Counted from the first letter of the stretch, positions 20,581 through 46,892 are shown. The stretch is DNA of 64,000 nt from Candidatus Bathyarchaeota archaeon (GCA_963807605.1 CAWECG010000004.1:128001-192000), one strand, 5' to 3'. Program-made: numbers and translations. Notes: generated from the sequence alone by a model not told the origin.

Positions 20581-21246
20581 ATGCCAAGAAGTATCATTGG
20601 AAACTGGGACGGCGATAGTAAGGAGCCCATCATACCATTGTCACGGTTGTCAGGGCGTATTCGCCCCCAGATGCCCCTCAAAGAGAAGATCGCTCAATCA
20701 ATCTATCGTTTGAAAGTTCAGCAGAGCAAACTTGAGAACTCGTCTCAAAGAATGCAAAGGCATGACAAGAACCTCTTCGATAAATGCATCTCCGCTCAGA
20801 TGACAAAGGACAACTCCAGGGCAGCATTGTACGCCAGCGAATGCGCCGAGATCAGAAAAATGGCATCAACGGTTTTGCGATGCGAGCTGACCTTGGAGAA
20901 GGTTATTCTGAGGCTTGAGAACGTGCAGATGTTCGGCGATACGGCTGCGATGCTTGGGCCTGTAGCAGGTGTGGTCAAATCTATTAAGTCTGAGATTAGC
21001 GGGGTCATGCCTGAGGTCTCTTATGCTCTTGGTGAGATCGGTGAGACTCTAAACGGCGTAGTCATTGAAGTCGGTGAAGCCACCGGTCAACAATACGATG
21101 ACTTCGCATCCAGTTCTGAGGCTCAGCAGATACTCGGCGAAGCGTCAGCCGTGGCTTCACAGAGAATGACTGAGAAGTTCCCTGATCTGCCGAGAGTTTC
21201 AGTCCCGATCGGTTCAAGATTTACAGAGACAAGTTCGACCCAGTAG
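20581..21246 (+). CDS. cdvB: CdvB/ESCRT-III (Snf7) paralog 1, without winged helix
   Basis: LFDKCI..RAALYASECAEIRKM..LEKVILRLE..MPEVS..EAQQILGEA..FPDLP. Confidence 0.92.
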   Translation: MPRSIIGNWDGDSKEPIIPLSRLSGRIRPQMPLKEKIAQSIYRLKVQQSKLENSSQRMQRHDKNLFDKCISAQMTKDNSRAALYASECAEIRKMASTVLRCELTLEKVILRLENVQMFGDTAAMLGPVAGVVKSIKSEISGVMPEVSYALGEIGETLNGVVIEVGEATGQQYDDFASSSEAQQILGEASAVASQRMTEKFPDLPRVSVPIGSRFTETSSTQ

Positions 21247-21288
21247 CCCTGACTCAACATTGGAGGTTGAAAGAATACGAGCCTAACA

Positions 21289-22017
21289 ATGGAGGACCTA
21301 AAGAAATTCGTAGGGAAGACTGTAAAGGATCCTTATGGAAAAGATCTCGGCAAGCTCGTAGGAGTCACTTCCAGCATAAAGGGCGAGATTAGCAACGTGA
21401 GTATTGAGCTCTACAATGGAGATTTCGCAATCTTTCCCAGCAGACAGCTCTCAGTAAACGGAACGATACTATCCCTGGCGCAGGACTGGGCTGTTGAGGC
21501 AGATGAACTTACCAGGGAACTTGACTTACTCAGACGAAGAGACAACGCACTAAATGAGCTATCTGTAAGCGGCGATGTCGAGGAGACTATGTACAAACAA
21601 CTGAAAGAACAATTCAGACAAGCAAGAGGCGATTTGCTGAAGAGGAGCGAGGCAGCCGTTGAGAAACTTGCGGAAACCTCACAGAAGCTCGATGAACAGA
21701 TGAAGATCATCCAAACCATAATGGCCAATAACAAAATGCATTATACTTCAGGAGAGCTGGGAGAAGAGGCCTATAACTTGGCGAATGAGACAATTCAGAA
21801 TGGTCTGCGCCACTTCTCCTCTGAGAAAAAGAACATCGAAGACAAGATCAACACTCTAATAGCCTCAAGGGATAGCGCTGAAGACATCGGGACATCAAGA
21901 ATTGAGCCACAAACCAAACCCCCACCGGTGGCAGAGCCTACTGTCTTGACAAAGACTCCCGGACTCACGAAGACTGGAGGCCCAAGAGATATAGTCATAG
22001 TCCGAATGGAGCCGTAA
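21289..22017 (+). CDS. cdvA: CdvA-like protein 1 (PRC barrel, coiled coil, C-terminal beta-strand tail)
   Basis: FVGKTVKDPYGKDLGKLVG N-terminus, long coiled coil and C-terminal IVIVRMEP. Confidence 0.9.
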   Translation: MEDLKKFVGKTVKDPYGKDLGKLVGVTSSIKGEISNVSIELYNGDFAIFPSRQLSVNGTILSLAQDWAVEADELTRELDLLRRRDNALNELSVSGDVEETMYKQLKEQFRQARGDLLKRSEAAVEKLAETSQKLDEQMKIIQTIMANNKMHYTSGELGEEAYNLANETIQNGLRHFSSEKKNIEDKINTLIASRDSAEDIGTSRIEPQTKPPPVAEPTVLTKTPGLTKTGGPRDIVIVRMEP

Positions 22018-22035
22018 GAGGGATCAGCAATTCTT

Positions 22036-22824
22036 CTGTCCAGACGGAAAGGCTGGAGGAGTCGCATCCCGCCTTCCCTGAAGGAACGTCTCTCGGACAT
22101 ACTGTATAAACTAAACATCCAGAAGGATAAGCTCGAACAGACAACAGAGAGACTCTATCAGAGAGATAACGAGATCTTCCAGAGATGTATCGGCGCACAG
22201 ATTGGCGGCGACGAGAACCACGCTAAGATATACGCTAACGAGTGCGCTGAAATCAGAAAAATGTACCTGACCGCAAAGAGCGTTCAGCTCGCACTGGAAA
22301 AGGTAACTCTCAGACTCGAAACAGTAGAGCAGTTCGGGGAGACTATTAGCCAGTTAGCTCCTATAATGGAGGTTGTGAAGGAAACTAAAGGTGAGATAGC
22401 CGGTCTAGTTCCAGACGTGGCAGGCGAACTGGACAGAGTCACATCAGTGCTCGTTGAACTAAGTGCAGAGACCGGCCAGGTGACCCCAAGTGACTTTGAG
22501 GTCCAAGTTACAAACAACGAGGCAAAGAAAATTCTGGACACTTCTCGAAAGATAGCAGATGAAAAAGCACGGGAGAAGTTCCCAGAACTGCCTTTTGCGC
22601 AATTTGAGGTGCCCGCTTCCGAAATTAGGAGTGAGCAACCTTCAAGTGGTCAACTGGATCCTTCAATTCTTGAACAAGTCCTATTCTACATAGAATCTCG
22701 TGACGGAAGGGTATCTGTCTCTGAATGTGCTAGTCGACTTTCAAGACCCCCCAGTGACGTGATCAAGGCGATAGACCAGTTGAAAGAGAAAGGAAGGCTC
22801 GCTTTGGAACAGGAAATGGAGTGA
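22036..22824 (+). CDS. cdvB: CdvB/ESCRT-III paralog 2 with C-terminal winged helix; probable CTG or ATT start
   Basis: Homology to the other CdvBs extends about 70 codons upstream of ATG22261 (LKERL..LYKL..FQRCIGA..IYANECAEIRK); FPELP motif; C-terminal wH (LFYIESRDGRVSVSECASRL). Confidence 0.9.
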   Translation: MSRRKGWRSRIPPSLKERLSDILYKLNIQKDKLEQTTERLYQRDNEIFQRCIGAQIGGDENHAKIYANECAEIRKMYLTAKSVQLALEKVTLRLETVEQFGETISQLAPIMEVVKETKGEIAGLVPDVAGELDRVTSVLVELSAETGQVTPSDFEVQVTNNEAKKILDTSRKIADEKAREKFPELPFAQFEVPASEIRSEQPSSGQLDPSILEQVLFYIESRDGRVSVSECASRLSRPPSDVIKAIDQLKEKGRLALEQEME

Positions 22825-22866
22825 GCCGATCTGGAATCTGTTATCAAAGACGATGGTTGTTGAGCT

Positions 22867-24006
22867 TTGTCAGCATCTGAAGAACTTGAACGAATAGCAG
22901 TGAAGTATGCTACCGAGGCCACTCGACTTGATAAGCAAGGATCAAGGGGTCTTGCAATAGCGAAGTACCAGAGAGCCGTCGAAATCCTTCTGAAACTGTG
23001 CGCACTGTACCCAAACTCCTCACAGAACTCCATCTACATGGAGCACGCGGAGTCCTACAGAAAGAGAATAAGAGAACTCCAGAACCAGGAAAATCACCAA
23101 GAACCCGTAGAGACTGCACCTTCGGGGGCGGAGGCTAAGTTTGAACAACTCGTTCTTAATGAGAAACCAAGCGTCAGATGGGAAGATATCGCCAACCTGA
23201 ATGCCGCAAAGAGAGCTATAGAGGAATCGATAATATTTCCTGTCAAAAGACCTGATCTTTTTCCGTTAGGGTGGCCCAGGGGCATACTCTTCTTCGGTCC
23301 GCCAGGATGTGGCAAAACGCTCCTAGCCGCGGCAGTCGCAACGGAGATCGATGCCACATTCTTCTGTATCGACGCCGCATCGATAATGTCAAAGTGGCTA
23401 GGCGAGTCTGAGAAGAATGTTGCACATCTATTTGAAGAAGTCAGACGGATGAGCTCAAACGGCAAGCCTGCAATAGTCTTCATAGACGAAATCGACTCTC
23501 TGGTTGGAATCAGGTCCCAAGAGGTCGGAGGGGAAGTCAGGGCTCGAAACCAATTCCTGAAAGAGATGGATGGCGTAATCGACAAGAAGAGATTGCTTCA
23601 CGCCTATGTTATTGGCGCCACAAACAAGCCTTGGGTTCTGGACGACCCGTTCAGAAGGCGATTCCAAAAGAGGATCTTTGTGCCCCTCCCAGAAGCAGAT
23701 GCAAGGCTCGAAATGTTCAGAATATTCTCAAAGAATCTCAACATGGGCGAAGATGTGACTTTCGAAGAACTAGCGAAGATAACGGACGGGTACTCTGGCA
23801 GCGACATATACGACAACTTCCAAGCAGCCCAGATGAAAGTCGTAAGGGAGTTCTTCGAGAAAGGCAATCCAGAAGATAAGCAGGCTAAGCCCAGGCCAAT
23901 AATTATGAACGATTTCAGAGACGTATTTCGAATACGGAAGCCCAGCGTAGACCAAAGCACGATGCGTTTCTATCACAAATGGTCAGAGGAATTCCAAGCC
24001 GCCTAA
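22867..24006 (+). CDS. cdvC: CdvC/Vps4 AAA+ ATPase
   Basis: N-terminal MIT domain (AVKYATEATRLDKQG..AIAKYQRA), GPPGCGKT, IMSKWLGESEK, FIDEID and GATNKPW..RRRFQKR motifs. Confidence 0.96.
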   Translation: MSASEELERIAVKYATEATRLDKQGSRGLAIAKYQRAVEILLKLCALYPNSSQNSIYMEHAESYRKRIRELQNQENHQEPVETAPSGAEAKFEQLVLNEKPSVRWEDIANLNAAKRAIEESIIFPVKRPDLFPLGWPRGILFFGPPGCGKTLLAAAVATEIDATFFCIDAASIMSKWLGESEKNVAHLFEEVRRMSSNGKPAIVFIDEIDSLVGIRSQEVGGEVRARNQFLKEMDGVIDKKRLLHAYVIGATNKPWVLDDPFRRRFQKRIFVPLPEADARLEMFRIFSKNLNMGEDVTFEELAKITDGYSGSDIYDNFQAAQMKVVREFFEKGNPEDKQAKPRPIIMNDFRDVFRIRKPSVDQSTMRFYHKWSEEFQAA

Positions 24007-24030
24007 AGGTGTGATCGAAGGACGACAGTC

Positions 24031-24495
24031 ATCAACTCCACTGACCTCAAGATCTTAGCTGAGCTTGTGCACAACTCCAAGGCCACGCTAGCTGATATCG
24101 GCAAGAAGATTGGGCTCCACCCGAATGTAGTCGCCTACAGAATAAACAAGATGGAGAATCTCGGCATAATAAGAGACTACACAGTCAATCTTGACCTTGA
24201 GAAACTTGGACTGACAGAACAAATCTATCTCGGCACAACTTTTCCTGCCCACTCTGAACGTGATACATTGCTGAAACAGATATCAGCCCTGCCTCAAAGC
24301 ATCACAGTGGTAAGCTCCTTCGGATCCCCAGAAGGGATAGTTCACCTCGTAGGTAAGAGCAAGGAAGACATAGACAAGGTCATAACAAGACTGAGAGAAC
24401 TGAACGTAAAGATCGAGTACGCTGCCCCTGTCATCAAGACCTATCAAAGTGGAAACCTCGGTAATTTCCTCAAGATGATGGCCGAAGCACACTAA
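24031..24495 (+). CDS. Lrp/AsnC-family transcriptional regulator; probable ATC start upstream of GTG24067
   Basis: INSTDLKILAEL..ATLADIGKKIGL..VAYRINKMENLGIIRDYT..LDLEKLG. Confidence 0.85.
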   Translation: MNSTDLKILAELVHNSKATLADIGKKIGLHPNVVAYRINKMENLGIIRDYTVNLDLEKLGLTEQIYLGTTFPAHSERDTLLKQISALPQSITVVSSFGSPEGIVHLVGKSKEDIDKVITRLRELNVKIEYAAPVIKTYQSGNLGNFLKMMAEAH

Positions 24496-24516
24496 GCCAC
24501 CGGCAGGTTATGAAAA

Positions 24517-25008
24517 ATGCCCCTTTCCAAACTGCTTATGAGACTCCTCACGAGGCCACAACGGCACACACTGTTCTCCATGGTTACCGCTACCATTCTG
24601 ACTGTAATCCTTGTGGTGATCCTTCCTAAACCCAACGACTCCATTATGACAATCGCCATTCAAGTGATGATCTCTGCAGCCATCTCATCCGTGGTACTGA
24701 ATGAGCTCTTCCTTGGACTGGTAGACAGGAAGCGTGACATGGCTATTCTGCTGGTAATTGGAGTTCGGAAGCATCTTTTAGGAGCTATCCTGCTCGGAAA
24801 AACGATTCTATATGCTTCCGTTTCCTGTTTCCTCGGGGTAGCTCTTGGATACATACTGATGCTGTATAATGGCGGGCACCTGACCTTGACGCTCAATTCT
24901 TCCATGACCTTGTCTTCTTTAGCGATCTTCGGTCCTGCTCTTCTAGCTGGTGCATACACCACATTGTACATATCCCGCCTGAATGTCTCTGAGGTGCTCA
25001 GACATTGA
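24517..25008 (+). CDS. Minimal FtsX/MacB-like ABC permease (4 TM, no extracellular domain)
   Basis: DRKRDMAILLVIGVRK matches the FtsX-family RxREIxxLxxxG motif; four hydrophobic helices. Confidence 0.75.
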   Translation: MPLSKLLMRLLTRPQRHTLFSMVTATILTVILVVILPKPNDSIMTIAIQVMISAAISSVVLNELFLGLVDRKRDMAILLVIGVRKHLLGAILLGKTILYASVSCFLGVALGYILMLYNGGHLTLTLNSSMTLSSLAIFGPALLAGAYTTLYISRLNVSEVLRH

Positions 25009-25700
25009 CAGAGAACTCAGCCATAATTTCCGTGAAAAACCTACACAAAGCCTTCAGGGACGGGTCTTCCACAATTCGGCTTTTCAACGGACTTACCTTC
25101 GAAGTATCGAAGGCTGATTTTGTTGCTGTTACAGGTGCCTCAGGAACCGGAAAGACCACTCTCATCAACCTTATCTCGGGTCTTGAAAAACCAACTCAAG
25201 GCTCAGTCAAGGTTCTTGGCAAGGAACTCTCGTCTTTAAGCTCAAGTGATCTCGCGGTAATCAGGGCGCATTCAATAGGCATACTATTCCAGACGTTTGG
25301 GCTGATAAACGACTTGACTGTTCAGGAGAATATCGAGCTCGCTCAGGATCTTTCAAGAAATAATGGGTCGAGGCGAGATAGATACGCGTCTGAGTTACTT
25401 GAGTTCTTCGGCATCCAGGACAAGGCGAACTTCAGCCCCGCCAGCCTCAGCTTCGGCGAAGCCAAGAAAGTTGGAATAGCAAGAGCTCTTGCAGCCGAGC
25501 CAGAGATCCTCTTGCTTGACGAACCAACCGGAAACTTAGATCCGCCCTCAGTGAATGTCCTCCTACCGATCCTTAGAGGGTTGAGGCACATATACGGAAA
25601 GACTATAATCATGACTACAAACAGTCTTCGCGCGGCGAAGATTGCAAACCGCGAGATTCGTTTGGAAAGGCCCACAATGATGATGAACCAAATTATGTGA
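25005..25700 (+). CDS. LolD/FtsE/MacB-like ABC ATP-binding protein with degenerate signature and H-loop
   Basis: GASGTGKTT, LFQ, LSFGE, LLLDEPTGNLD and MTTN (no His); overlaps both neighbours. Confidence 0.9.
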   Translation: MTENSAIISVKNLHKAFRDGSSTIRLFNGLTFEVSKADFVAVTGASGTGKTTLINLISGLEKPTQGSVKVLGKELSSLSSSDLAVIRAHSIGILFQTFGLINDLTVQENIELAQDLSRNNGSRRDRYASELLEFFGIQDKANFSPASLSFGEAKKVGIARALAAEPEILLLDEPTGNLDPPSVNVLLPILRGLRHIYGKTIIMTTNSLRAAKIANREIRLERPTMMMNQIM

Positions 25701-26320
25701 TGTATATGTTCAGATATAAACCAACATTGGGAGAAAGAATAAGAGAAACCTTTCACCCGACACCAGTAAAACGGCGACTAAACCATACCATCCACCGACT
25801 GCAGATCCAAATGCGACGACTCGAATCGAAGACCTATCAACTCCAGTCTAGAGACAAGGCTCTATACGCAAAATGCGTCTCAGCAATACAAGGAAAGAAC
25901 AATACCCAGGCATCGATGTACGCGAGCGAATGTGCAGAGATCAGAAAGATGGTCCTCACCACTCTGCGCAGCCAAATGGCAATAGAACGCGTATACCTAC
26001 GACTTGAGACAGTCAGGGACTTTGGAGAGATAGCATACGCAATGAGCTCAGTAGGAGCTGTCCTAGGCAAAGTGAGGACCGATCTCCAAAACTTGATGCC
26101 TGAGATATCGACAGAGCTCGCTGAAGTTAACGATACACTGCAGTCAGTAGTCCTCGAAGTAGGTCAGGCAACGGAACAGACCCTCGATTTCAACGCACCC
26201 ACAGAGGAGTCCGAGGCGATAATGAAAGAAGCCGGAACCCTGGCGGAGCAGAGGATGAAAGAGAGATTCCCAGAGATGCCCAAGATTCCGACAGCTGAGG
26301 AAGGCTCTTCCCTACCATGA
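25697..26320 (+). CDS. cdvB: CdvB/ESCRT-III paralog 3, without winged helix
   Basis: LYAKCV..ASMYASECAEIRKM..IERVYLRLETV..MPEIS..FPEMPKIP. Confidence 0.92.
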   Translation: MMYMFRYKPTLGERIRETFHPTPVKRRLNHTIHRLQIQMRRLESKTYQLQSRDKALYAKCVSAIQGKNNTQASMYASECAEIRKMVLTTLRSQMAIERVYLRLETVRDFGEIAYAMSSVGAVLGKVRTDLQNLMPEISTELAEVNDTLQSVVLEVGQATEQTLDFNAPTEESEAIMKEAGTLAEQRMKERFPEMPKIPTAEEGSSLP

Positions 26321-26323
26321 TAG

Positions 26324-26941
26324 GTGGAAAAGCCAGGTAAGATGTCGCAACTTTCTGAGTCCGAGCTCAAGAGCTTCCTGGGAAAGAGGACCACCGACCC
26401 CTATGGTCGGAACCTCGGAAAGATCATAGGAGTGACGCTGAACGACTATGGTGAAATGGAAGCGGTCGAGGTGGAGAAGGGAACAGGGGAGCTTGAAAGA
26501 ATTCCAGTGGATCAACTCAGTTTTAGCCGAGAAGGAATAACGGTCGTCTCCAAGTGGAAGATCGAAGTCGAATCCCTGATTAAAGAGATTGAGTCGGCAG
26601 AACGTCGCCTCACCGCACTCAACACCCTTCTAAAGAAGGAAGAGATTCCAAGAAACCTATACGAAGAACTGTCCGGAAAACAAAAGAGAGAACTTGAAAA
26701 CCTACAAGCGAAGAAGAATCTCGCTATCAACATACTGCAGAGAAGAGGCAAAGAACTGGACGGGCAGATCGAGGAGTTAACAAAAGTTCTCATTGAGATC
26801 AGAGCTGGGAAATGGTCCAGTGACTTCTCCGACAAGGCGTACGAATTTGCATCAAAATCAATTGAACCAAACCTCAGCTTTGCGGCCAAAGAAAAGAGAG
26901 AGCTTGCAGACAGCCTCGCCAAGCTAACCAAGCTAATCTGA
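26324..26941 (+). CDS. cdvA: CdvA-like protein 2, lacking the C-terminal tail
   Basis: FLGKRTTDPYGRNLGKIIG PRC-barrel start plus coiled coil; clearly paralogous to 21289..22017. Confidence 0.88.
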   Translation: MEKPGKMSQLSESELKSFLGKRTTDPYGRNLGKIIGVTLNDYGEMEAVEVEKGTGELERIPVDQLSFSREGITVVSKWKIEVESLIKEIESAERRLTALNTLLKKEEIPRNLYEELSGKQKRELENLQAKKNLAINILQRRGKELDGQIEELTKVLIEIRAGKWSSDFSDKAYEFASKSIEPNLSFAAKEKRELADSLAKLTKLI

Positions 26942-44868: not shown

Positions 44869-46239
44869 TCATGCAACTTGGAACAGGTTCTTCCTAACCT
44901 CTACCAAGAATCCAAGATTCTGAAGCTGAAGGATTGCGGTTACGGCTGAACGCTCATCATCAATATCTGTCTCGGTCTGGATTAAGCTGACAAGCTCTTT
45001 CAATGAGAGCTTCTCTCCTTTGTGTGAGCCTATGATCTGTAGAGTTTTTGGAAGATTCTTGCCCAAATCGGGCCGCCCGTCGACCACCGTGCTCGCCAGC
45101 CTCTCAAGTTTGTCAGCCTCCGGTTCGAGGCTGGTTCGCGGTTGCGTTGCTTTCCTCTCGCCTTTTTGCTCCGTCAGTTTGAAGCCTAGTCCCTCCTTCT
45201 TCGATTTTGCCTTGGCTTCTAAGACCTGCTCATGGTGCTGGTACTCCGCCTTTGCACTCTCTACGAGGTGGCCCAGTTTCTTTGGTACGTCCATCCCTGT
45301 CAAGATGCCAATGTAGGATGTCCATCTCATGTGCTCCGACGGGTAGATACCGAGCATAGCATCCTTTCCCGCAAGGAGTTCATGTAGTGTCCGTCTTATC
45401 GCATCAACTTGTAGGGTTGTGAATAAGTGAGTCGGTCCTTGCACTCCGAAGATCACTCCCGAGGCGGAGCTTGGATCTACTTCAGCAAATAGGCTGGTGT
45501 TCCAGCTCCGGCGGAGTGTGGCTGCAACATCCTCAACCATGTTAGCTGGAGTCTGGAAGTTTGCAAGGGTTGCGAAACCTGGATACTTGAATATGGATAC
45601 GAGTTCGGACTCGTCTTATTCTGTCTGCCCTGCTGGGCAGATTGGCAAAATCTATCAGGTCAAGAAACGTCTGAACAGCGATCTCCATTTACTTTTTCGT
45701 AGGCCTCGGTCAGGATTTTCTGTGGAAGTGGGCTGTCAACTTATCATTCTCAATGCAGATAATTGCTTTTACAGCCTCATGCCTGTAGAGCAGGTCTATT
45801 CCCATTGAGGCATTGACTTTTGCCTTAACAGATTCCGTCTCGAAAGGGAGGGTCACAATGGAGATGCAGGTCCTTCCCAGCTCGCCTATGATTTCAGCCA
45901 TGATGGGTGCTACGCCTGAGCCTGTCCCGCCGCTTCCCCAAGGGTGAGCAGAATAATGTCAGTATCACTGCTTAGTAACTTTGAGACTAGGGCTTTGATG
46001 TTTGTGCGACTTTGAATGGCCGCCTCATGTCCTTCCTGCCAGTTCTTCGCTGCGCCCTTTCCACTCCCGATGAGGAGTTTATTCTCCGCGGGGATGTTTC
46101 GATGTGTCGCTAAATCGGCTACATCACTGTTAATCGCGCATACATCCATTATCATTCCTTTCTTGTCGATGGCGGTCCTCTTGAAGTCGTCCGCGATCTT
46201 TCCGCCACAATGACCAAGGCCGATCGTTAGAAACCTCAA
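44869..46239 (-). CDS. Divergent FtsZ/tubulin-superfamily GTPase with C-terminal winged-helix-like domain; four 1-nt indels (sequencing errors or pseudogene)
   Basis: Joined frames give IGLGHCGGKI, INSD, GKGAAKNWQEG, (G)GGTGSG, TLPFETE, IENDKL, YEKVN and RIDESEL; about 456 aa. Confidence 0.85.
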
Positions 46240-46892
46240 TCTAGACGCTCCTTTTTGTCAGACTGCTCCAGGATCTCGTTGTACTTACCTTCTTCGATTA
46301 CGCCAAGTTGATACATTATGCTTGCTATCTCAGTCATGCTCATGAAAGAATGAAGCTTCACGTTAGACTTCTGTAGCTGCGCTTTCCCACCCTCCTGTCG
46401 GTCTATCAAGACTACGGCGTCGGTCACAATGCCTCCCTCAGCTCTGAGCACGTCGATGGCGTCAACCAGGCTCTTCCCAGTGGTGATGAGGTCATCAACG
46501 ATGACAATCCGATCGCCTGGCGTCACAACTCCTTCTATTCTTCGTTCTCTGCCGTGTGTCTTTTTCTCCTTTCTAGAGTAAAGGATTGGTTTGTAAAGTT
46601 GAAAGGCTAGGACTGACGCGAATAGGAGTCCTGAAGTTGGTACGCAAGAGATTCTGTCGAATTCTTCTATTCCAATGTCGTCCTTAACCAACTTCTCGTA
46701 GATCTCTATCACCCTCCTAAAGGATTCAGGATGACTAGGTATCGAGCGAAGATCAACATAGTATGGGCTGAGTTTTCCGCTAGTCAGCTTGAACATGCCA
46801 AATTTGAGCGCCCCTGTCTTCATCAGAATTCTGCATAACTCGGTTTCTTCTTTCTCAGTTCCATGAAGTTTCTCATCCACTTGGAATCCCAT
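46236..46892 (-). CDS. pyrE: Orotate phosphoribosyltransferase
   Basis: FKLTSGKLSPYYVDLR, RKEKKTHG, IVDDLITTGKS and IDRQEG motifs. Confidence 0.96.
   Translation of the reverse strand: MGFQVDEKLHGTEKEETELCRILMKTGALKFGMFKLTSGKLSPYYVDLRSIPSHPESFRRVIEIYEKLVKDDIGIEEFDRISCVPTSGLLFASVLAFQLYKPILYSRKEKKTHGRERRIEGVVTPGDRIVIVDDLITTGKSLVDAIDVLRAEGGIVTDAVVLIDRQEGGKAQLQKSNVKLHSFMSMTEIASIMYQLGVIEEGKYNEILEQSDKKERLD

Follow-up and report, generated by a model that had tools for sequence, protein, structure and literature searches.

We analyzed a cell division (Cdv) locus on a 64,000-nucleotide stretch of DNA (hereafter the window; GCA_963807605.1, CAWECG010000004.1:128001-192000) from a Candidatus Bathyarchaeota archaeon, whose genome assembly spans 2.65 Mb in 5 contigs and is 94% complete. 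Positions 20581-26941 of the window carry nine co-oriented open reading frames (ORFs) on the + strand, which Pfam and NCBIfam naming places in the order cdvB1-cdvA1-cdvB2(wH)-cdvC-lrp-permease-ATPase-cdvB3-cdvA2, where wH stands for winged helix. An earlier note, made from the sequence alone, had proposed these nine genes in this order, and the ORFs and their family assignments bear it out. The locus is an enlarged, lineage-specific, conserved, and real variant of the Cdv (ESCRT-III/Vps4) operon. Embedded in it are the genes for a small FtsX-type permease and an ATP-binding cassette (ABC) ATPase, and this ABC pair is very probably an integral, selected part of the locus. The nine genes are:

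cdvB1, 20581-21246, + strand: ESCRT-III paralog lacking a winged helix; FPDLP (MIM2-like) motif at the C terminus; Pfam Snf7, E=4e-6
cdvA1, 21289-22017, + strand: CdvA with a PRC barrel, the CdvA coiled coil, a Pro/Thr linker, and a C-terminal E3B-like strand (PRDIVIVRMEP); PF18822, E=4e-14
cdvB2, 22030-22824, + strand: CdvB orthologue with an ESCRT-III core and a C-terminal winged helix; NF041008, 155 bits
cdvC, 22867-24006, + strand: Vps4-type AAA ATPase with MIT, AAA, AAA_lid_3, and Vps4_C (Pfam); NF041006, 512 bits
lrp, 24022/24031-24495, + strand: Lrp/AsnC-type regulator; HTH_24 and AsnC/LysM NCBIfam matches
permease, 24517-25008, + strand: minimal FtsX-type permease of 163 amino acids; PF02687, 27.0 bits against a cut-off of 25.5
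ATPase, 25005-25700, + strand: ABC ATPase of the MacB/LolD/FtsE subfamily; ABC_tran, E=7e-31
cdvB3, 25697-26320, + strand: second CdvB1/B2-like ESCRT-III paralog; Snf7, E=2e-7; NF041005, 170.8 bits
cdvA2, 26324-26941, + strand: second CdvA, with a PRC barrel and coiled coil; PF18822, E=3e-15; NF041007, 75 bits

Successive genes are separated by 42, 12, 42, 15-24, 21, -4, -4, and 3 nucleotides. Gaps of about 40 nucleotides or less, as described in the earlier note, are obtained only when cdvB2 is started at ATT 22030 or CTG 22036. The two 4-nucleotide overlaps it reported are present and were read directly from the sequence: the permease and ATPase genes share TTGA (25005-25008), and the ATPase and cdvB3 genes share GTGA (25697-25700). 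For cdvB3, initiation could occur at the GTG within this overlap or at ATG 25700, which would reduce the overlap to 1 nucleotide; cdvA2 may alternatively begin at ATG 26342.

Recurrence of the locus and co-inheritance of its parts

With the window permease as query, 17 loci of relatives were retrieved, encoding short orthologs of 160-200 amino acids. As far as the contigs reach, the order B1-A1-B2-C-L-P-E-B3-A2 (L, lrp; P, permease; E, ATPase) is identical in 17/17, even though identity across these loci falls to ~25% for the permease and to 45% for the ATPase. The nine-gene order also occurs in named GenBank contigs from metagenome-assembled genomes, and two metagenome contigs from the Joint Genome Institute carry the nine genes alike according to their precomputed Pfam labels. 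In total, 25 distinct loci bear the pair; they come from several families of one order and share one gene order throughout. Such recurrence is far beyond chance. The earlier note had looked to related genomes for linkage of the ABC pair to cdv genes, and the two are linked in the whole sub-lineage.

Locus types were delineated from the cdvC neighborhoods of other families and orders together with 80 named contigs, for which CdvC served as the query. Other orders of the class have only cdvB-cdvA-cdvB(wH)-cdvC. Within the order of the window, a nested series is found, consisting of C-B3, C-Lrp, C-Lrp-B3, and full C-Lrp-P-E-B3-A2 loci. Loci L079, L080, L082, and L130 have lrp after cdvC and no cdvB3 within 4-7 kb, and in L059 and L081, cdvB3 is present and lrp is absent. 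The class-wide core is cdvB1-cdvA-cdvB(wH)-cdvC, to which one order added lrp and cdvB3; a subset of that order gained the permease and ATPase between lrp and cdvB3, plus a second cdvA after cdvB3. Given that loci with one alone exist, the lrp and cdvB3 additions are separable. Likewise, the existence of C-L and C-L-B3 loci makes lrp older than the ABC pair.

The permeases form a small family with sharp limits. When 301 genomes of the class were queried with a profile of the short permeases, strong matches over the full length (>99 bits) were confined to four families of the window's order; everything else was an ordinary FtsX of ~400 amino acids scoring <60 bits. In a collection of 5.8 billion proteins, 19 permease matches scored 130-204 bits, all of them 163-170 amino acids long, and the next match scored 51 bits.

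The ABC pair and the second CdvA are inherited together. Downstream DNA sufficed for this comparison in 67 distinct loci: 25 encode the ABC ATPase together with CdvA2, 42 lack the two, and none is discordant (0/67). cdvA2 was seen only in loci that also bear the pair. Since the two additions flank the retained cdvB3, each transition between these states needs two separate insertions or deletions.

Structure, motifs, and origin of the ABC pair

An AlphaFold2 model of the permease (predicted local distance difference test score, pLDDT, 77.5) consists of an N-terminal helix, four long transmembrane helices, and a short coupling helix. The loop between the first two transmembrane helices spans only ~6 residues (PKPNDS) in the model, leaving no extracytoplasmic domain. 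Every permease ortholog is similarly short (160-171 amino acids) and lacks this domain; the four ordinary FtsX permeases of the same genome measure 392-462 amino acids. Searched against the PDB with Foldseek, the model matched type VII ABC permeases exclusively among its top ~37 hits (FtsX, HrtB, LolC/E, MacB, BceB, and YtrF), with probability 1.0 and template modeling (TM) scores up to 0.77, but with E>=0.013. None of the NCBIfam FtsX models matched the window permease. In addition, four FtsX ORFs of 840-910 amino acids from relatives were searched with a CdvA2 profile, and no CdvA-like region was found.

The ATPase contains DEPTGNLD and is matched by the NCBIfam models for LolD (177 bits), FtsE (173 bits), DevA (161 bits), and MacB (149 bits), all under their curated cut-offs. 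Fold and ATPase subfamily place the pair in the MacB/FtsX (type VII) superfamily, although it is without two defining features, namely, the extracytoplasmic domain and the complete catalytic set. The superfamily assignment in the earlier note (FtsEX/LolCDE/MacB) thus stands in its broader part, and FtsEX has to be removed from it. Identification of the pair as FtsEX was rejected because the FtsE model TIGR02673 scores 172.7 bits against a cut-off of 264.85, no NCBIfam FtsX model matches, and the extracytoplasmic domain is absent.

The window ATPase has intact Walker A, Q-loop, and Walker B Asp-Glu motifs and the signature LSFGE, with Asn in place of the H-loop His (TTN). We tabulated these motifs for 32 orthologs and relatives, 29 of them cdv-linked. 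In 29/29 cdv-linked ATPases, the H-loop His has given way to Asn (TTN/ATN) or Ala (TTA), and in the same 29/29, Walker A, the Q-loop Gln, and the Walker B Asp-Glu are invariant. The His is kept in free-standing relatives, which read T(T/A)HNPK, and, with few exceptions, in the genome's ~30 other ABC ATPases. A precedent for the effect of this residue comes from HlyB, whose H-loop mutant H662A binds ATP and dimerizes without hydrolysis (PMC5018854).

In a phylogenetic tree of the ATPases, the cdv-linked members form one clade (support 88/96), which includes a clade of soil Bathyarchaeia and is sister (97/97) to the ATPases of free-standing pairs of short FtsX and ABC genes. The ordinary MacB-type paralogs of the genome (35-37% identity) fall separately, so the grouping with ordinary exporters against which the earlier note had weighed its proposal is not what the tree recovers. 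The free-standing pairs (L070:8878-10144, L071:9044-10421, and L072:8565-9867) come from another order of Bathyarchaeia and lie beside SUI1- and TFB-like genes; cdv genes are absent within 9 kb. Their permeases are 169-193 amino acids long and devoid of the extracytoplasmic domain, the ATPase gene overlaps the permease gene, and the ATPase signature reads LSMGE. They therefore share with the cdv-linked pairs the permease type, the gene overlap, the LSxGE signature, and sister ATPases, and differ by the retained H-loop His, the absence of nearby cdv genes, and a stronger FtsX Pfam match (49 bits). The sequence relationships point to a single recruitment of the ABC pair, from free-standing pairs that already lacked the extracytoplasmic domain, and, as read from the aligned motifs, the H-loop His was lost after entry into the cdv locus. 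In a phylum-wide search of 401 genomes, the ATPase had no ortholog-level match outside the order (orthologs at ~340 bits versus <=220 for generic MacB-type proteins). The threshold of this search was too lax, as it admitted generic MacB-type ATPases at ~200-220 bits; only genomes G000 and G005 reached ~340.

The soil clade (L083-L105 and L061; soil/Angelo-type Bathyarchaeia) has a very fast-evolving ATPase (branch length 2.0), with GGSGWGKS as Walker A and TTA at the H-loop; its CdvC is no more diverged than that of other families. The permease position is occupied by a 155-amino-acid protein with four transmembrane helices. An AlphaFold2 model of this protein (pLDDT 83.5) retrieves FtsX, HrtB, LolC, and MacB first, as weak fold matches, and a highly diverged homolog of the permease is the probable identity.

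Cdv proteins, regulator, and start codons

Genome-wide, both CdvA genes are the two in the operon, the ESCRT-III genes all lie there save for one weak match elsewhere, and there is only one cdvC. The NCBIfam CdvB1/B2 model is the best match of cdvB1 (209.7 bits, below the 350-bit equivalog cut-off), and NF041007 is the best match of CdvA1 (91 bits) and CdvA2 (75 bits), again below 350 bits. Sub-cut-off scores are expected for Bathyarchaeia, as the equivalog cut-offs of the Cdv models are calibrated on Sulfolobales. Read from ATT 22030, cdvB2 is covered by NF041008 (CdvB) over positions 21-259 of 260; Pfam reports its winged helix only as a weak FeoC-like one. By these matches, the Cdv parts of the locus are ordinary members of a Cdv system.

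The Sulfolobales arrangement, a cdvA-cdvB-cdvC operon with dispersed cdvB1, cdvB2, and cdvB3, has the same CdvA build (PRC barrel, coiled coil, and E3B-like tail), winged-helix CdvB, and Vps4-type CdvC. The likeness extends to the additional ESCRT-III paralogs without a winged helix, which match the CdvB1/B2 model best. Unlike in Sulfolobales, all paralogs here are in one operon, which also has two CdvA genes, the embedded Lrp and permease/ABC pair, and a non-canonical cdvB start.

The two CdvA proteins of the window differ in their C termini. A comparison of tails found equivalents of the CdvA1 terminal strand, PRDIVIVRMEP, conserved across the class, and by sequence this strand is E3B-like; in Cdv systems, E3B is the C-terminal CdvA peptide to which the winged helix of CdvB binds. 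In the window's family, CdvA2 stops directly after the coiled coil, without a linker or E3B tail. When the cdvA2 genes of L053, L054, L056, L058, and L127 were compared, the CdvA2 proteins of two other families were seen to retain a short linker and an E3B-like terminal strand (ending in SLTLHVRE and EPIVLQLEG); that of the soil clade ends in LPSKVSIN. Because two other families keep the tail, its loss is secondary and does not enter the definition of the module.

The Lrp protein is as conserved as CdvC among relatives, at 76-86% identity within the family. Its HTH_24/HTH_AsnC match spans the whole domain when the gene is read from 24031. Matches to the AsnC/LysM NCBIfam models reach residues 119-126, far below cut-off, and Pfam reported no match for the C-terminal RAM (ligand/oligomerization) domain of such regulators. 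Lrp probably regulates transcription of the operon.

Two genes of the operon have unusual starts. The cdvB2 ORF is in frame with the TAA stop of cdvA1, with no ATG, GTG, or TTG over 22015-22263 before the first canonical ATG at 22261; a start there would sacrifice ~75 upstream codons of conserved ESCRT-III core. Initiation probably takes place at ATT 22030, six bases after GAGGGA. The homologous codon is ATT or ATC in several genera and TTG or ATG in others, and L044 has no recognizable start. This looks like a conserved non-canonical start, which could possibly tune the CdvA:CdvB ratio. Similarly, lrp has no canonical start before GTG 24067. A start at that GTG would remove the first helix of the helix-turn-helix, as the HTH_24 match covers positions 2-48 of 48 when read from 24031 versus 15-48 from 24067. 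ACG 24022 aligns with the ATG of orthologs (e.g., L044 and L045), and ATC 24031 is an alternative; the ACG could be a near-cognate initiation codon, a recent start-codon mutation, or a base error.

The operon is preceded by APS-kinase-like and OB-fold genes and followed by a convergent ORF of 430 amino acids and ProRS. Because these flanking genes are unrelated, the boundaries given above are right. Elsewhere in the window (44869-46257, - strand) lies a tubulin/FtsZ-family gene broken over two or three frames, of which one matches Tubulin positions 3-108 and another positions 119-187. Tubulin has no other match in the genome, and the break reflects a frameshift, a pseudogene, or misassembly. 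In relatives G005 and G002, an FtsZ/tubulin-family ORF (468 and 457 amino acids, respectively) lies intact ~15-19 kb from the cdv locus; in two other genomes of the order, no Tubulin gene was found.

Proposed role of the ABC pair

FtsEX is an ABC-like complex of the bacterial divisome. It is regarded as a signal transmitter, not a transporter, and the extracellular domain of FtsX binds hydrolase activators of the EnvC/PcsB type. The pair described here shares with bacterial FtsEX the superfamily of both subunits, the four-helix FtsX fold (8x61_C, TM-score 0.66; 8tzj_C, TM-score 0.77), an FtsE-like ATPase, and a genetic link to a cytokinesis machine. It differs in being archaeal, in having neither the extracytoplasmic domain nor the H-loop His, and in being linked to ESCRT-III/CdvA rather than FtsZ/FtsA. 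Without that domain, the pair cannot regulate wall hydrolases as FtsX does. Likeness to MacB, LolCDE, HrtBA, and BceAB lies in the combination of an FtsX-domain permease with a MacB-type ATPase bearing DEPTGNLD, in LolD as the best NCBIfam match, and in all top fold matches. In those systems, a large periplasmic or extracellular domain serves mechanotransmission or substrate handling; the pair here has no such domain, and its H-loop is degenerate.

The overall best explanation, which we offer tentatively and regard as falling a little short of an even chance, is that the pair acts as an ATP-gated anchor or regulator in the membrane, serving the second CdvA/CdvB pair, and is not a transporter. 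A complex of two permease and two ATPase subunits would no longer move anything across the membrane and would instead be an ATP-binding switch within it. Closure of the ATPase dimer upon ATP binding, with slow or no hydrolysis, would alter the cytoplasmic and intramembrane face of the four-helix subunits. The altered face would dock or release CdvA2, and thereby CdvB3 polymers, making the complex a membrane anchor or assembly checkpoint for the second CdvA/ESCRT-III module. Such logic would resemble FtsEX acting on FtsA/FtsZ from the cytoplasmic side. An ATP-gated switch fits better than a transporter because the four-helix dimer has no outer domain, nucleotide binding and the dimer interface are kept, and the catalytic His was lost upon entry into the cdv locus. 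The translational coupling to cdvB3 and the strict co-inheritance with the second CdvA favor it further.

These components carry different weights. That the pair is non-transporting is rather likely, and that CdvA2/CdvB3 is its direct partner is plausible but less than an even prospect. We infer that docking or licensing CdvA2, together with CdvB3, at the membrane is the most economical role. The most specific form of the proposal, in which the FtsX/ABC complex is a membrane receptor for the CdvA filament and a CdvA2/CdvB3 ring is licensed to assemble at the membrane by ATP that is bound but not turned over, is speculative. The anchor proposal speaks to a finding in Sulfolobus, where CdvA filaments fail to bind membranes in vitro and present no membrane-binding surface; a 2026 structural study postulates a tethering partner (PMC12818579). 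A predicted complex of two permeases, two ATPases, and CdvA2, computed with alignments, scored 0.37, 0.37, and 0.04 versus 0.23 for the control and was not used as evidence either way.

Several observations weigh against the anchor proposal. The need for an anchor is not obvious, as CdvB paralogs carry N-terminal amphipathic helices with which they bind membranes themselves (PMC12818579). The C-L-B3 relatives and all other Bathyarchaeia manage without the pair and CdvA2, which makes the module an accessory and not a general CdvA tether. Replacement of the H-loop His by Asn or Ala lowers hydrolysis but may not abolish it, and the LSxGE signature is not specific to the cdv-linked clade, as the free-standing relatives share it. 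The 155-amino-acid protein of the soil clade has no similarity to the permease profile by hhalign and none by Pfam or NCBIfam. Finally, when the co-occurrence pattern is placed on the CdvC tree, it amounts to 1-3 evolutionary events with one supported independent pair; the ABC-CdvA2 coupling is perfect, yet with a single such pair, no statistical test is possible. In this count, the short contig L056 of G040 was left out as an independent lineage because it groups tightly with the ATPases of another family and may be mis-binned.

Other explanations account for part of the same evidence. The pair could be a working type VII machine whose substrate is hydrophobic (a lipid, a small peptide, or a lipid-anchored protein) and is moved or extracted laterally in the membrane, as needed locally in Cdv scission or budding. 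The type VII systems LolCDE and HrtBA take their substrates from the membrane, the permease fold matches theirs, the ATPase retains the catalytic Glu along with Walker A and the Q-loop, and both genes are intact ORFs in every locus. A machine of this kind would have no extracytoplasmic domain to receive or pass on its substrate, the locus encodes no substrate-binding, adaptor, or outer component, and loss of the H-loop His sets the cdv-linked clade apart from its nearest relatives; we consider this explanation rather unlikely. Quite improbable, in our assessment, is a passenger status, in which the pair would be an ordinary small exporter, perhaps Lrp-controlled, that sits in the operon for historical reasons and has no Cdv role. 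Free-standing pairs do exist beside housekeeping genes in other Bathyarchaeia, away from cdv genes, and databases label the family only generically, as "antimicrobial peptide transport permease." A passenger would not readily account for a fixed position between lrp and cdvB3 with overlapping frames in several families and down to ~25% permease identity, for gain and loss strictly with cdvA2 across an intervening gene, for an lrp that predates the pair, or for a clade-specific loss of a catalytic residue.

A further alternative concerns the process and not the mechanism, and it is compatible with an anchor. The lrp-permease-ATPase-cdvB3-cdvA2 half of the locus may form a second ESCRT module, for vesicle budding, membrane repair, or virus-related remodeling, leaving division to the upstream half. 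The locus does read as two cdvB-cdvA pairs, B1-A1 and B3-A2; given the intact FtsZ/tubulin-family gene near the cdv locus of relatives, either system may divide the cell; and ESCRT systems of TACK archaea also make vesicles (PMC11188069). With only one cdvC, nine genes packed as one apparent operon, and no cargo-binding component, this separation of labor is unlikely, and the sequence does not discriminate between the processes.

The word undescribed, which the earlier note applied to the possible anchor or regulator, is almost true. One sentence in Ravi et al. 2024 in mSystems (PMC11237479, Suppl. Text 2.2) mentions the arrangement; it does not identify the transmembrane protein as FtsX-type, delimit the lineages concerned, connect the pair to a second CdvA, note that the H-loop His is lost, or propose a function. 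The comprehensive ESCRT survey of Makarova et al. 2024 makes no mention of an ABC-bearing operon, and further literature searches found nothing else. New here are the delimitation of locus types, the coupling of the ABC pair to CdvA2 across cdvB3, the single origin suggested by the free-standing pairs, and the clade-specific loss of the H-loop His.

The means by which CdvA is brought to the membrane is a standing question (PMC12818579), for which the ABC pair supplies a candidate membrane partner. A CdvA paralog whose gains and losses strictly parallel those of a small membrane ATPase complex, one that looks made to switch and not to transport, yields a defined set of four proteins: the permease, the ATPase, CdvA2, and CdvB3. 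Should the pair be a passenger, the finding would shrink to a lineage-specific operon variant. If the anchor proposal is true, the pair would be the first membrane tether or gate identified for CdvA and a counterpart, on the ESCRT side, to FtsEX-FtsA. Such a pair would, moreover, be the first recruitment of the FtsEX/MacB superfamily to an ESCRT machine and would reveal a convergent use of ABC "mechanotransmitters" by both prokaryotic cytokinesis systems.

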